The notes under the pieces: generated by a model
What the model saw: only the letters and a program-made list of their open reading frames with translations
What the model was told of the DNA's origin: nothing
The model's database searches: none
Shown here: piece by piece, positions 48,653 through 54,268 of the stretch
Layout: every line of letters starts with the position of its first letter
Position numbering within the stretch: the stretch's first letter is position 1
Position numbers and translations under genes: made by a program
IMG/VR virus record: IMGVR_UViG_3300002895_000002
Location: 96,001 to 160,000 of that record
Source of the DNA: a virus
Taxonomy: Duplodnaviria; Caudoviricetes
Reading direction: 5' to 3' (one strand)
DNA: 64,000 bases

Positions 48653-48951
48653 TGAAGATGCCAGCGTATGATTTTTACTGCTCGCAGTGCAACAAAACGT
48701 ATGAAATCAAGATGACCATGTCCGAACACTCCGAACAGAAGGACAAAATGACCTGTCAGGAATGCCACCAACCCCTCAGTCAAACCGTATCTCCACTCCG
48801 GTTTACTCTCAAGGGCTCTGGTTGGTATGCTGATGGGCCTGGAAACAACTCGAACGGTTCTGGATATGGTGTAACTCAACGTGAGATGGACAAGAATGGG
48901 GATCTCACGAAAGGGATGGAAGACGCTATGATGAATGCTCCTCCCGAGTGA
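48649..48951 (+). CDS. FmdB-family Zn-ribbon protein
   Basis: MPAYDFYCSQC..CQEC..FTLKGSGWY. Confidence 0.85.
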   Translation: MMKMPAYDFYCSQCNKTYEIKMTMSEHSEQKDKMTCQECHQPLSQTVSPLRFTLKGSGWYADGPGNNSNGSGYGVTQREMDKNGDLTKGMEDAMMNAPPE

Positions 48952-48998
48952 TAAATATCCAGCCCCAAGAAACGAACCAATCGAAAGGAATACCTTCC

Positions 48999-49862
48999 AT
49001 GTCTCAATTTTCCACCACTGATTTCTTTCTAACAGATTTTCAACGGCTCATTTGGGCCGATAACTATCGGGATCCCCAACATGATCCGACGGTGGAAGCA
49101 ACATTTCGACGAATGGCTGCAACAATCTTCGCCAATGAATCTGAGGAGCTCCAGCAGGAACTCTTTGATCAACAACTCATGGCCAAGATCTTCTTCGGTG
49201 GTCGCGTGTATAACCTCGGTCGTGGCCTGAAGAACGTCAATGCTTTCAACTGCTATGCGGCTCAGCGGTCCACCATGCCAGTTGACTCCATCTCCAACAT
49301 CTTCGCTGATATCACCAATGCAGCGGAGATCCTGAAGACCGAGGGCGGCATTGGGTTCAACTTTAACCACATCAGACCGAAGGGTACTCTCATCAAGGGC
49401 GTCGGTGTTGGTACTCCGGGTGTCCTGGCTTTCATGGAGATTCAGGACAAGACCGCCGATGTCATCACCCGTGGTTCTACCGGTGACATTATCCAGGCCG
49501 ACGAGAATACTCCGACCAAGAAGAAGATCCGCAAGGGCGCTCAGATATCCCTGTTGGACTGCCGCCATCCGGAAATCTTCGCCTACATCGATGCCAAGAA
49601 GATCCCCAACCGGTTTGTTTGGTTCAACATGTCGGTAATTATTACGGACCGGTTTATGGAAAGATGTTTAGAAAATATAAATAAAATAGTTATTGAACTA
49701 AATGATGGAACAAAACATGAACTAGACCCCAATGAAGAAATAGAAATAGATGGGGTTATAATGACAGCGAAGGAATATAAAGATGGGTGTGAAAATAATG
49801 CCACCAAAAGACGAATTTATCAAGATGATAAAACAATCAGTTCTTCTGAAAGATGTAGCTGA
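48999..49862 (+). CDS. nrdJ: Class II ribonucleotide reductase, fragment a
   Basis: FFGGRV; AFNCY (redox Cys); GGIGFNF; RKGAQ; FNMSV; AT-rich non-RNR tail after ~49665. Confidence 0.88.
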   Translation: MSQFSTTDFFLTDFQRLIWADNYRDPQHDPTVEATFRRMAATIFANESEELQQELFDQQLMAKIFFGGRVYNLGRGLKNVNAFNCYAAQRSTMPVDSISNIFADITNAAEILKTEGGIGFNFNHIRPKGTLIKGVGVGTPGVLAFMEIQDKTADVITRGSTGDIIQADENTPTKKKIRKGAQISLLDCRHPEIFAYIDAKKIPNRFVWFNMSVIITDRFMERCLENINKIVIELNDGTKHELDPNEEIEIDGVIMTAKEYKDGCENNATKRRIYQDDKTISSSERCS

Positions 49863-50695
49863 ATATTATAAAGTAAGCCAACAATCAATAATTAAATGGA
49901 TGAAAAAATATAACATCTATGATGAATTTAATTTTAAGCGTAATGTTGGTAAAGGAAATCTTGGAAAAACAATAATTTGTTCCGAAGAACTAATAATTCG
50001 ATTAAGAAAAATGGCAGATAATCGGAAAGGACAACCCGGCCATAAAAGAATACAAAGAATAAAGGAAAGGTGTTATATATGTGAACACGAATTTATAAAA
50101 AAAGAATCTGACGAAAAAAAAGTATGTTCTAAAAAATGTGCAATAGTTCTTCGAAGTATTGAAAATATAAAATCTATAAATGTGGTGTGCACATATTGCG
50201 GTACATTTATTGAAAAACCACTGTCTCTCATCAAAGAACATAATTTTTGTGATTATAATTGTTGTAATGCATGGCGAAAAGGAAAAACATATGAAGAACT
50301 ATATGGTGAAGATAAAGCAAATATTATTAAACAAAAAATAATGGCAAATAGATCAGAAAATACTATTATGGTTCTTACTCGTCCACATATCAAACTCAAA
50401 AAATGAAATGATTTCTAATGGGTTATATGATGGATTCCAAACTTCAAAGAAAATGTATCAATTTGAAATAGATGAATATAATCATGATTTACAATTATGT
50501 TTAGAAATTGACGGCGATTATTGGCATAATTATCCTTATGGAACACAACAAGATAAAAGGAAAAATACATTTCTTGCTAATAAGGGATTTACTGTATTAA
50601 GAATATGGGAACATGATATAAACACTAATTTGGGTGGTTGTATTGAAAAAATTAAGGAGACTATTGAATGCTTAAGCTCTCAAGCAAAGAAATAA
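49783..50695 (+). mobile_element. Vsr/DUF559-like homing endonuclease inside nrdJ, +1 frameshift
   Basis: Zn fingers CxxC; EIDEY..LEIDGDYWH..DKRKN..GFTVLRIWE; the two ORFs join if the A6 run 50398-50403 loses one A; late promoter at 49676. Confidence 0.8.
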
Positions 50696-52209
50696 AGAAC
50701 GTAAGAAATGGTGGTGACTGGGACCTGTGGTTCCCTGACATCAAGCATCCCGAGTACGACAAGCTCTGGAAGGGTGACTTCGATGCATGGGAAGCTGCCG
50801 GTCTTCCCAAGGTCATCTATCAGACCATCAAGGCACGGGAGCTCTGGGATAAGCTCATCCAAAACACCTACACCAGGAACGAGCCAGGCATTCTCTTCAT
50901 CGACAATGCCGAGAAGAATAACAACCTCACCAGGTACATGAAAGTGACGGGTGTGAACCCCTGCGGCGAGATCCTGATGTGTGCTGATCCTGGCATCGTG
51001 GAGATCGACGGTGTTATCTATGAGTACCTCGGTGACATCTGTAACCTCGGTGCTATCAACCTCACCCAGTTCTTCACCATCGAGAACGGCTTTGCCTGGG
51101 ATGCTTTCAAAGAGTCCGTAGCAGTGCTCGTCCGTGCTCTGGATAACGTCATCGACATCTCTGGGTATCCGCTGGAGAAGATCAAGAACGCCGCCATGCT
51201 TCGCCGTAAAATCGGCTGTGGTGTCATGGGATACGGCTCGTTGCTCTTCATGATGGGCTTCAAGTACGGCTCCCAGAAGGCCAACGAGTTCACCGAAGTG
51301 CTAATGAAAGAGTACGCCAATGCTGCATATCAGGCATCGGCCATGCTCGCCAAGGAGAAGGGTGCATTCCCGCTCTGGAAACCCGAGATGATCAACGATG
51401 GGTACATCGGCAACTCCGGGATGCTCACCGATGAAACACTGGACCTCATAGCAGCACACGGTCTCCGTAATGCTCAGCTGATGACCATCGCCCCGACAGG
51501 CACCACATCCATCTTTGCCGGTCTCGTCAGCGGCGGTGTTGAGCCGGTCTTCGAGAAGGAGTACACCCGGTGGGTCATCTCCAACCACAGAGCAGAGGAG
51601 CTTCTGGAAGGGCTCGATGCTCCTGACTACCGCAACGGTCAGTTCGTTGAGACGAAGGACTTCAAGTTCTCTATGGCTGGGGATGAGAAGGTCCTAGTGT
51701 CTCTGGATGGCACCCTGATGATCGACCAGAATCATGGCCTTCGCAAGAAAGAGATCTGCGAGGATTACGGTTGGTACTGGGCGAAGAAGCACCGCGATCC
51801 GGATGCCGTGACCTTTGCCAAACGCCTCGGCATCTACAAGACTGCCATGGAGTTGTCAGTCAAGGAGCACATGGATGCATTTAAAGTTATGTCTAAAGCA
51901 GTTGATATGTCAATTAGTAAATGTGTTGATGTTGAAACCACTATGGTCGAAATAGATGGGAAGATTGTTTATCTTGATGAACTGGAATATGGGGAGGAAG
52001 ATTCCTTTGTCCAAATGTCCGGCATGATAAAAAATCATAATCACATTGATGTTCCGATTAAAGCAACATATAATAATGGAATCACCGATGTGGTAGAAAT
52101 AACTTTTTCTGATCGGTCCTCAATCATATGTACACCCAACCACCGGTTATATACCGAAAATGGGTTTGAGCCGGCTATTGAAATTTTGGTAGGAACAAAA
52201 ATTGTGTAA
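50668..52209 (+). CDS. nrdJ: Class II RNR fragment b fused to N-terminal split intein
   Basis: Own AAGGAG RBS; GVNPCGEI; ICNLGAINL; IAPTGTTS; GGVEP; SISK then intein. Confidence 0.9.
   Translation: MLKLSSKEIKNVRNGGDWDLWFPDIKHPEYDKLWKGDFDAWEAAGLPKVIYQTIKARELWDKLIQNTYTRNEPGILFIDNAEKNNNLTRYMKVTGVNPCGEILMCADPGIVEIDGVIYEYLGDICNLGAINLTQFFTIENGFAWDAFKESVAVLVRALDNVIDISGYPLEKIKNAAMLRRKIGCGVMGYGSLLFMMGFKYGSQKANEFTEVLMKEYANAAYQASAMLAKEKGAFPLWKPEMINDGYIGNSGMLTDETLDLIAAHGLRNAQLMTIAPTGTTSIFAGLVSGGVEPVFEKEYTRWVISNHRAEELLEGLDAPDYRNGQFVETKDFKFSMAGDEKVLVSLDGTLMIDQNHGLRKKEICEDYGWYWAKKHRDPDAVTFAKRLGIYKTAMELSVKEHMDAFKVMSKAVDMSISKCVDVETTMVEIDGKIVYLDELEYGEEDSFVQMSGMIKNHNHIDVPIKATYNNGITDVVEITFSDRSSIICTPNHRLYTENGFEPAIEILVGTKIV
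51922..52209 (+). mobile_element. Split intein N-part (95 aa)
   Basis: Starts CVDVETT after SISK; block B CTPNHRLYT; ends EILVGTKIV-stop. Confidence 0.88.
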
Positions 52210-52223
52210 ACATAACCATCTTA

Positions 52224-52265
52224 TATAAATAGATATACTCATATTGACAAAGAGGATCTATTTAT
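52224..52265 (+). promoter_or_regulatory. Late promoter plus inverted repeat occluding the HE start
   Basis: ataaatagat/atctatttat arms; the 3' arm overlaps ATG 52264. Confidence 0.6.
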
Positions 52266-53346
52266 GCGAAATGTTGTTAAAAACACAATTCATCGATGGA
52301 ATAAGACGATGGATTTATCGCAGTATTCCATCGATGAATTGGAGGAATTCTTACAAAAAAAATTATATTGACTTTCCGAGAAATGTTAGGTATAATATAG
52401 GAAAGTGGATTGGTTCAGGGAAACCATTATCTGATTATTCTATTGCCGCAGCAGCACAACATCGGTCTGTCTTTTCTACTACCTATATTGCAGAGAAAAA
52501 TAAAAGGTATATAGAAAGTCTTCCGGAAAATGAAAAAAAGATACGGTATAAAAAATCATGTGAGAAGGGGCAAATAACACGAAAAGAGAGACACGGTTCT
52601 ATTTCCGAATCTTATCGTAAAGGGTTAATCCTAAAGGGCCAACGAACCGCATTACTATTAGGAATAACCGACACATTGTCTGATACTGAATTATTGTCTT
52701 TATCCGGTTACCAAAAGAAAAATAATTACCAGTTATTAACGGAAAGTGAAAAAGAGAAAAAAAGAATAGCCTGGAAAAAACAAATCTTAAAAATACCAAT
52801 GTGTTTGAAATCATCATTTCAGAATATCCCATTTTTTCAACCGTCGATGTGAACCAGTTGTCGGATGAAGAAATAGAAACCTGGTATAGATGTTACCGAT
52901 CAATAATGTCTATTAGAAGAATGAACAATAAACATCATTCTTATGGGAGATCAGGTCATTATTATTCTAGTAAAACACGAAAGAAACATTATTACAGATC
53001 ATCATATGAATTGAAGTTACTACAAATTCTAGATGAATTTGAATTTGTGATCGATTATATGACAGAACCGTACCACATTACATTAGACATAGGAAAAAGA
53101 TATGTTCCCGATTTTGTGATTGAAACTAAAAATGGTCGAATAGTAGTTGAAGTAAAACCAACGTTTAAACTAAAAGAATTTCTCGAATCTAAAGGTTATC
53201 AATTATTTTCTCAGCTATCCAATTTCGTTATTATGACCACCGAAGAAATAGACCAAGGAGAAGAAAATGTCAGATCCCAGATTGTTGAATATACAAAAAA
53301 CGTCAGATCGCATACCAGCGAGCTACAGATCAGAAAAAACGATTGA
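52264..53346 (+). mobile_element. TnsA-like PD-(D/E)XK homing endonuclease between split-intein halves, two frameshifts
   Basis: YRSSYELK..RYVPDF..VVEVKP; continuity needs -1 at A8 52355-52362 and +1 at A6 52775-52780. Confidence 0.75.
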
Positions 53347-53542
53347 AGATATAAAAAATGACCTTAATTCACTAAATTGGGATGATGTAACCAACCAACA
53401 TTTATTTAACCTGCGGGCTGTTATTTTTCCTCAACCGAAAACTGTAACTGGAATTCGTATGGTTGGAAAAAAACAAACCGGGGACCTAGAAATAGATCAT
53501 CCATCACATTCTTATTATGCAAATGGTGTACCTACTCATAAT
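53267..53542 (+). mobile_element. Split intein C-part (92 aa, long N-terminal extension)
   Basis: TGDLEID..SYYANGVPTHN followed by Thr+1. Confidence 0.88.
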
Positions 53543-54268
53543 ACAGTGAACCTCCCAGCTGATTATCCATATGACGATTTTGACAAACTCTTCAGGGATG
53601 CATGGAAGAGCGGTGTACGGGGTATCACTACCTACCGTGAAGGCACCATGACAGCGGTCCTCGAGACCAACAAGAAGAAGGACAAAGAGACCAAGAAGGC
53701 CAAGGAAGAGCTGAAGGACTTCTACGAGGAATGGGAAGGGCATGAGGACGGCCGTGTTCGCATAGACGATGTCCAACTTCCGTCCGAGTACCCCATGACC
53801 GGTTTCAAGATCGTCTCTGAAGGCCGCAAGTGGTACATCTCCGTTGCGTTCAAAGACAAAAAGATGACCAAGCCGTTTGGCATCTTCGTCACGACGAATC
53901 ACCGTGAAAATGACGTGAAAACGTACTCTGCTCTTTCGGCCATGGAGCAGTTGGCTACTGAAGCAGGCATCCTTGAGCGGATTATCGAGGACAATCGTAA
54001 GAAGTATGCTGGCCAGACCAATATCAATAAGCTGGCTCGGACTATCAGCCTTCTGTTGCGACACAACGTGGACATCGCTCTCATCGTAAAGACCCTCGAT
54101 GCTCTCGATGACATCCCGGTGTTCTCATTCATCTACCGCATCAAGAAGTTCCTCACCAAGTACATCACCGAGATGGAGAACGGAATGAGTTGTCCTGAGT
54201 GTGGTGAAACGTTGATCTACACCGAGGGATGCATCAAATGCTCTCAGTGTGCATACAGTAAATGCTAA
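53267..54268 (+). CDS. nrdJ: C-terminal split intein fused to class II RNR fragment c (TSCPD-like domain and Zn ribbon)
   Basis: AAGGAG RBS; THN|TVNLP; AWKSGVRGITTYR; CPEC..EGCIKCSQCAYSKC. Confidence 0.9.
   Translation: MSDPRLLNIQKTSDRIPASYRSEKTIEDIKNDLNSLNWDDVTNQHLFNLRAVIFPQPKTVTGIRMVGKKQTGDLEIDHPSHSYYANGVPTHNTVNLPADYPYDDFDKLFRDAWKSGVRGITTYREGTMTAVLETNKKKDKETKKAKEELKDFYEEWEGHEDGRVRIDDVQLPSEYPMTGFKIVSEGRKWYISVAFKDKKMTKPFGIFVTTNHRENDVKTYSALSAMEQLATEAGILERIIEDNRKKYAGQTNINKLARTISLLLRHNVDIALIVKTLDALDDIPVFSFIYRIKKFLTKYITEMENGMSCPECGETLIYTEGCIKCSQCAYSKC

Follow-up and report, generated by a model that had tools for sequence, protein, structure and literature searches.

This analysis concerns a window of 64,000 nucleotides taken from a complete 213-kb virus record (IMGVR_UViG_3300002895_000002), and within it the second of two inserts that interrupt nrdJ, the gene for a class II, B12-dependent ribonucleotide reductase. 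We conclude that this insert, at positions 51922-53542, is probably a mobile element of the 'fractured gene' type, seated between the Lys and the Thr of the SISK|TVNLP motif in the nrdJ of a T4-like phage, with the two flanking gene products rejoined by protein trans-splicing. It appears to be made of three parts, namely an N-terminal intein part (IntN), a homing endonuclease gene of the PD-(D/E)xK type apparently driven by a late promoter, and a C-terminal intein part (IntC), the last of which opens with an extension of ~55-57 residues that looks to be a conserved, folded domain. The parts of this insert and its exteins all lie on the plus strand of the window.

The host gene is spread over three open reading frames (ORFs; 48948-49862, 50668-52209 and 53267-54268), parted by two inserts of ~30% GC, the gene itself being ~53% GC. 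Its identity as class II NrdJ is given by profile and structure-sequence matches across the fragments. The middle fragment (50668-51921), which constitutes the N-extein and ends ...DMSISK, matches Pfam Ribonuc_red_lgC (1.3e-67), NCBIfam NrdJ_Z (1.6e-77) and the Thermotoga maritima NrdJ (1e-36); the NrdJ_Z score is still under its full-length cutoff because the gene is in pieces. The C-terminal fragment (53543-54268), i.e., the C-extein, starts Thr+1-VNLPADYPYDDF, ends in a Cys-rich zinc ribbon, and was assigned by comparison with the uninterrupted phage NrdJ of L001 and by a match to the NCBIfam B12-dependent reductase profile (2.4e-20, from residue 92). No Rfam match to a group I intron was found in the 48.5-56.5 kb region at E values up to 1. 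The phage itself is T4-like, as judged by the late-promoter box TATAAATA, which occurs in 17 copies in the window versus 1.5 expected.

The two intein halves fit this gene precisely. IntN (51922-52206) comprises 95 residues that include Cys1, block A and the block B motif TPNH, carries a net charge of -11 and is closed by a TAA stop at 52207-52209. IntC (53267-53542) corresponds to the first 92 codons of the ORF 53267-54268 and ends ...VPTHN, followed by Thr+1 at 53543 and then VNLPADY; its last 35 residues (53438-53542) form a canonical IntC core with blocks F and G, which runs ...GDLEID..SHSYYANGVPTHN|T and aligns with the IntC parts of gp41-1 and VidaL. Across the site L001 reads ...SAISKTVNVPADYPYDDF..., and the window, once joined, reads SISK + TVNLPADYPYDDF, so that excision of the 95 + 92 residues is exact and restores the SISK|TVNLP host motif. 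The first-pass annotation, made from the sequence without database searches, had described the same halves (C1, TPNH and a stop in IntN, and an IntC ending THN before Thr+1 at SISK/TVNLP), and its coordinates all hold.

The residues on which splicing depends are retained well beyond the window. In IntN, T71, N73 and H74 of the TPNH motif are invariant in 4 lineages, and in a 19-sequence alignment of IntC, T71, D73, H81, Y83, N86, G87 and H91 are invariant, with N92 and T93 nearly so (the exception is P0027, a truncated outlier ending HM). With Cys1, TxxH, blocks F and G, His-Asn and Thr+1 all present, the element is predicted to encode a class 1 intein with all its catalytic residues. On IntC, the NCBIfam profile intein_Cterm (TIGR01443) scored 19.1 bits, above its cutoff of 15.6. 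At the same time, the pair does not appear close to any solved intein: in phmmer comparisons with solved inteins, the best E values were 0.019 for IntN (PI-MtuI/RecA inteins) and 0.57 for IntC (VidaL), and among the characterised phage split inteins IntN matched NrdJ-1 at 0.2 and IntC matched gp41-1 at 1.4, which is marginal similarity. The family was also absent from deposited phage genomes, and its nrdJ site is not that of NrdJ-1 or NrdJ-2, all of which bears out the initial description of the pair as new.

That the intein is naturally split is supported by its layout, wherein IntN ends at a stop and IntC has its own putative ribosome-binding site and ATG, and by the recurrence of this layout in other phages. 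Protein and locus searches found five independent lineages with the same nrdJ allele: the window, the L003 group, L006, L011 and L013. They differ in the endonuclease gene, which is broken by frameshifts in the window, is a single ORF in the L003 group (404 residues, with TGA read as Trp), in L011 (365 residues) and in L013 (344 residues), and is missing from L006, where an 84-nt spacer stands between the intein halves. In the window, the IntC start (ATG at 53267) has the Shine-Dalgarno sequence AAGGAG 6 nt upstream (53253-53258), inside the endonuclease ORF and in locally unstructured RNA. Met1 and a purine-rich, Shine-Dalgarno-like stretch 6-8 nt upstream of it are kept in all five lineages (AAGGAG also in L003, TAGGAG in L006, and the weaker AAGGA and GGGGG in L011 and L013, respectively). 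The sole later in-frame ATG of IntC, at residue 65, is not conserved, and a start there would lose the first IntC strand; the long IntC is therefore no start-codon artefact.

A profile search of 1.84 billion representatives extended the family to 18 clusters of metagenomic phage proteins, formed at 50% identity, which align with the profile from its residue 1 onwards and diverge to ~30% identity. Their full-length members are NrdJ C-fragments of ~310-340 residues, a few others being truncated (99-182 residues). All 18 are at the SISK|T site and all are split, with His-Asn|Thr at the junction save in one truncated outlier, and no contiguous protein carrying the extension was found among the matches of this search. 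The top row of the representative search, P0005, was discarded as spurious: it is a repeat protein of 7883 residues that gave 23 matches, each worth 4-7 bits. The first-pass annotation had named contiguous relatives, with the stops as sequencing errors, as one outcome that would overturn a natural split; the relatives with the extension all proved split, and the layout recurs in five independent assemblies.

The feature that sets this family apart is the N-terminal extension of IntC (residues 1-57, 53267-53437), an accessory domain of four predicted helices with the motifs RIPxxYR and TNxHLFNLR, or, across the family, (N/D)xRIPxEYR, EEIKxDL and (V/I)TNxH(L/I)xNL(R/K). IntC is 89-97 residues long in every family member. 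AlphaFold2 placed the helices at residues 4-9, 18-23, 26-34 and 44-53, and the confidence score of the extension (predicted local distance difference test, pLDDT) rose from 84-89 with 4 sequences to 90-94 with 19. The HINT fold does not need the extension to be complete, given that the 95-residue IntN can be aligned over its full length to canonical IntN, and that canonical IntC corresponds to the last 35 residues of IntC. Mean pairwise identity in the 11 closer members came to 0.46-0.47 in the extension, compared with 0.54 in the IntC core, 0.43 in extein residues 93-140 and 0.29 in the other extein residues; conservation of the extension is thus roughly on a par with that of the catalytic extein region.

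This conservation is not explained by the stretch of DNA that the extension shares with the endonuclease gene. It had initially been described as a ~55-residue extension overlapping the endonuclease; the extension is borne out, as a conserved domain, yet the overlap covers only its first 80 nt (26 of ~55-57 codons). In the other three lineages with an endonuclease gene the overlap spans only 23, 29 and 32 nt, and L006 keeps the domain without any endonuclease gene, hence an overlap constraint cannot account for the conservation. We therefore regard the extension as a conserved domain and a family trait, and not as a by-product of the overlap. Two origins were considered and dropped. Descent from contiguous alleles is unsupported, since hhalign of the family IntC with the last 170 residues of five contiguous inteins at the same site starts at query residue 40 and is convincing only from ~56. 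Fusion of the endonuclease to IntC by frameshifting is ruled out by Met1 and its Shine-Dalgarno-like stretch in the five lineages and by L006.

Searches for relatives of the domain returned little. The extension had no family match in Pfam, PHROGs or NCBIfam, Foldseek found no fold relatives in PDB and BFVD at E values up to 0.001, and a wide VIA-align search with two models containing the extension gave best Z scores of 4.0-4.3, all to generic helical repeats; these fold searches used models of more than the extension alone and so do not establish that it has no known fold. In the ESM Atlas, only unnamed viral proteins of 52-70 residues were matched by the extension, with scores (0.88-0.90) at chance level, and no second copy was found in the window, in the recovered loci or in the 213-kb genome. 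Of note, the weak VIA-align rows (Z 2.8-3.6, far below significance) include cobalamin-binding helical caps (AerR, photocobilin, the methionine synthase B12 domain and a CarH-like regulator), a curious set given that the host of the intein is a B12-dependent reductase.

Between the intein halves lies a free-standing gene for a putative TnsA-like PD-(D/E)xK homing endonuclease (52264-53346), which appears to be broken. A T4-type late-promoter box, TATAAATA, stands 15 nt past the IntN stop (52224-52231), as one does before each of the three endonuclease cassettes, and pairs with the endonuclease AUG (52264) in an 11-bp hairpin (52224-52266) whose predicted energy of -12.7 kcal/mol (z score -1.1) is not significant alone; the equivalent hairpin in L011 is strong (-31.2 kcal/mol, z score -4.8) and hides its ribosome-binding site. 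The best start of the gene is the ATG at 52264: it falls within the hairpin, is preceded by AAGAGG at a distance of 8 nt and gives an N-terminus like that of L011; a TTG at 52244 was dropped in its favour. The endonuclease profiles all score under their cutoffs (PF08722, Tn7_TnsA-like_N, 25.0 versus 26.5; DUF790, 26.0 versus 28.8; NCBIfam TnsA_like, 20 versus 110), and the protein also matches PHROG endonuclease families. The nuclease motif YVPDF...VEVKP aligns across the homologues.

The ORFs 52244-52852 and 52801-53346 of the window jointly correspond to the single endonuclease ORF of the relatives (344-404 residues). In tblastn, L003 residues 67-237 matched in one frame and 220-396 in another (E values 4e-34 and 2.5e-16), the switch falling at an A6 run (52775-52780), and a -1 shift there yields a collinear protein. 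We consider this frameshift firmly placed by the alignments. A second shift, of +1, at an A8 run (52355-52362) is probable, as it is implied by the ATG at 52264, which is in frame with the 3' part and meets a stop after that run. The predicted reading path would accordingly start in frame 1, change to frame 2 at the A8 run and return to frame 1 at the A6 run, ending at the TGA at 53344-53346. What the first-pass annotation called a free-standing TnsA-like endonuclease is the 3' half of a longer gene, frameshifted here, and no self-contained ORF of 181 residues. As to the cause, of the 19 homopolymer runs counted (A/T runs of 7 or more, G/C runs of 6 or more), 18 lie within long open frames and none of these frames is broken; the 19th is the A8 run at the predicted +1 shift. 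Real decay is therefore likelier than assembly error, and the window's endonuclease gene is more likely decaying by frameshifts.

Base composition offers a view of how the element was acquired. The GC content of IntN, the endonuclease gene and IntC is 0.33-0.37, versus 0.51-0.55 in the exteins, and the low values spill over into the flanks. Over the last 20 codons of the N-extein (51862-51921), GC at third codon positions (GC3) is 0.5 and then 0.1, versus 0.6-0.9 upstream, and GC is 0.317 versus 0.546; over the first 60 nt (20 codons) of the C-extein GC3 is 0.3 and then 0.5, later reaching 0.6-0.9. We infer that these flanks are co-conversion tracts, and that the whole unit came from a low-GC donor by double-strand-break repair. 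In such a scenario, the endonuclease would cut intein-less nrdJ alleles and the whole unit would be copied in together with short flanks, to judge by the composition boundaries.

Once expressed, the element would act at the protein level. In the mechanism that we propose, the middle and C-terminal NrdJ fragments would be translated separately, the acidic IntN would dock with IntC to form one class 1 HINT fold, and Cys1, TxxH, the block F Asp and His, and His-Asn/Thr+1 would ligate SISK to TVNLP by trans-splicing. Trans-splicing by the two halves is predicted from their intact and conserved catalytic residues. The extension, lying outside the HINT fold at the canonical split point, would leave with the excised intein, and any action of it would therefore come either ahead of splicing or from within the free intein.

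Could the fragments instead hold together without splicing? In the Aeromonas phage Aeh1, the NrdA fragments assemble non-covalently via cassette-derived tails, and an intein that no longer splices might likewise keep NrdJ together through its docked halves, the more so as Thr+1 is less nucleophilic than Cys or Ser. We consider this very unlikely, given the family-wide conservation of Cys1, TxNH, the block F Asp and His, and His-Asn-Thr (save in the truncated P0027), and since a module that merely docks would not need catalytic residues. Less credible still, to the point of being nearly negligible, is an artefact, i.e., that IntC starts downstream and the extension is untranslated, or that sequencing errors put the stops into what is really a contiguous intein. 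The two poly-A frameshifts in the neighbouring endonuclease gene lend it some colour; however, the split layout recurs with the same stop, promoter and IntC start in five independent assemblies, the endonuclease gene, where there is one, lying in another frame; the IntC start signals are kept in every lineage, while the lone ATG further on is neither conserved nor compatible with an intact fold; and long open frames stay unbroken at 18 of the 19 homopolymer runs counted. Trans-splicing by a naturally split intein is thus the reading we retain. Several points nonetheless weigh against parts of the overall picture: on IntN, the NCBIfam profile intein_Nterm (TIGR01445) scored 22.4 bits, just under its cutoff of 24.5 (some 2 bits short in the profile comparison that had been proposed as a check), and Pfam Intein_splicing was also below its own (18.3 versus 35.8); the endonuclease frameshifts could be assembly errors or programmed slippage; homing is inferred from composition only; and no fold or family match points to a role for the extension.

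As to that role, we ranked a helper in solubility or association first, a DNA-level or regulatory function second and a vestige third. The extension may keep the IntC-extein fragment soluble or aid its meeting with IntN before splicing, a guess that we hold only tentatively. Alternatively, its action could be on DNA, the excised intein carrying it as a small helical module for DNA binding or regulation, for example in target recognition or in repression of the endonuclease. It sits where bifunctional inteins hold their endonuclease and DNA-recognition parts, weak BFVD rows (E 0.2-1) include DNA-binding proteins and transcriptional regulators, and the extension is co-inherited with the endonuclease cassette in 4 of the 5 lineages. 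Yet it is equally conserved in L006, where the endonuclease gene is lost, no helix-turn-helix or other DNA-binding family was detected in the profile searches, its net charge is -1, and the endonuclease has an N-terminal half of its own (~200 residues), all of which render a DNA-level function unlikely. The idea that the extension is a vestige, retained merely for carrying the start codon, draws on the model in which the invading element provides the downstream start (PMC2677866), and we find it improbable as well: conservation equals that of the functional extein across 18 clusters down to ~30% identity, with motifs outside any overlap, the fold is predicted with confidence, hhalign finds no homology to the region before block F in the contiguous inteins of the same site, and no other copy of the extension lies near other endonuclease cassettes. 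Returning to the helper role, it is conceivable, if far from assured, that the extension represents a new functional accessory of split inteins (a built-in chaperone, an affinity clamp or a switch over trans-splicing) that could be moved to other split inteins.

The closest precedents are the 'fractured genes' of Dassa 2009 (PMC2677866), in which the split inteins gp41-1, NrdJ-1, NrdA-2 and IMPDH-1 have a free-standing endonuclease gene on the same strand between their halves, with a late-promoter element and a hairpin before that gene and a 6-69-bp overlap of its 3' end with IntC. The present element shares their order (extein-IntN, spacer, endonuclease gene, IntC-extein), their promoter box and hairpin, the 3' overlap with IntC and a host gene of phage nucleotide metabolism, and an endonuclease-less variant exists in both cases (their gp41-7; here L006). 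It differs in its nrdJ site, which is SISK|T here, whereas NrdJ-1 and NrdJ-2 adjoin the thiyl-radical Cys; in its endonuclease, which is probably TnsA-like PD-(D/E)xK, theirs being GIY-YIG or Vsr-like; in its IntC of 89-97 residues, including the added folded domain, versus the typical 33-54; and in the window's overlap of 80 nt versus 6-69 nt. Atypically split inteins (the Terminase locus of Dassa 2009, and the AceL-TerL and VidaL types) likewise have an IntC much longer than 50 residues, but there the split point lies nearer the N-terminus, IntN has 16-25 residues and IntC makes up most of the HINT fold; here the split is canonical, IntN has 95 residues and the extra length is a separate domain. 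In the nrdA-a/mobE/nrdA-b locus of Aeh1 (PMC3045599), a reductase gene is likewise broken by a free-standing endonuclease gene that supplies stop and start signals; unlike here, there is no intein, and the fragments assemble via short cassette-derived tails.

Contiguous LAGLIDADG inteins at the same K|T reductase site (e.g., P0021 and P0031) form another point of comparison. They share the insertion point, His-Asn/Thr+1 and homologous IntN and IntC cores, and in P0021 Cys1 was read directly. In contrast to the split pair, they are single polypeptides of ~400 residues with an internal LAGLIDADG domain and no counterpart of the extension. Their presence at this site makes Thr+1 a property of the site. 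The first-pass annotation had missed this point, as well as the fact that the overall arrangement is of the published 'fractured gene' type and that the endonuclease gene is longer and frameshifted here.

The arrangement itself is known (PMC2677866). The novelty lies in where this split intein is inserted, in the apparent type of nuclease and in the conserved, folded domain that IntC carries across at least 18 clusters. In the literature, covered only in part and hence giving no proof of absence, we found no account of any of these features or of a natural Thr+1 reductase split intein. Split inteins are standard protein-ligation tools. The fast natural ones that are known and characterised have Cys+1 or Ser+1 together with a short IntC; gp41-1, NrdJ-1 and IMPDH-1 use Ser+1, in contrast to the Thr+1 found here. 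A Cys1/Thr+1 pair with marginal similarity to gp41-1 and NrdJ-1 is likely to be orthogonal to them, and the same would be expected for Npu DnaE. Moreover, IntC has in this family gained, in nature and at the canonical split point, a domain that is conserved and predicted to fold, and, if this domain improves the solubility or association of the fragments, it bears on the aggregation problem that is being engineered around in split inteins. Finally, across the five lineages the endonuclease gene can be seen whole, in apparent decay or missing, and the intein is split in every case; this could illustrate how an endonuclease-free split intein such as the cyanobacterial DnaE may have originated.

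Several further observations were made at these and other loci. The first nrdJ insert of the window (49783-50695) also contains an endonuclease, in two abutting ORFs in different frames: one of 207 residues that ends with a TGA at 50404-50406 and, from 50408, one of 95 residues for a DUF559/Vsr-like nuclease. In L003 the Vsr-like endonuclease occupies a single ORF of 334 residues, hence the first-insert endonuclease of the window may be frameshifted too. TGA appears to be read as Trp in L003, L004, L005, L007, L008 and L010 (e.g., L003:5992-6972), whose genes are whole under table 4; TGA codons in frame coincide with conserved Trp positions in the extension and core of IntC, and one endonuclease ORF has 12 of them, beside ordinary TGG. 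In L003:1-6972 and L006:2716-6984, nrdJ is divided into four pieces by three split inteins, at the NPC, APTG and SISK sites; the gaps in L003 each hold an endonuclease gene (GIY-YIG, Vsr-like and PD-(D/E)xK), and those in L006 hold none. The first break is odd, as the N-fragment ends in ~190 residues with N-terminal and block-F-like intein motifs and without His-Asn, and the fragment after it begins nearly at the GE(I/Q) of the active-site motif. The L006 spacer (L006:5909-5991) retains, right ahead of the ribosome-binding site of IntC, a mini-ORF of 12 codons as well as another ribosome-binding site, and looks like the scar of a deleted endonuclease gene.

Related intein sequences were also encountered in other genes. 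At L017:24-2678, the element that fractures a DNA polymerase gene consists of a split intein and a Vsr-like endonuclease gene, and its IntC core is related to the present one; this IntC is of ordinary length (~38 residues), and the extension thus appears specific to the nrdJ allele. In L002:3437-6202, a SNF2-type helicase gene of a 236-kb phage carries a contiguous intein-like insert whose block B region is 40% identical to IntN; this insert seemingly lacks Cys1 and may be a class 3 intein.

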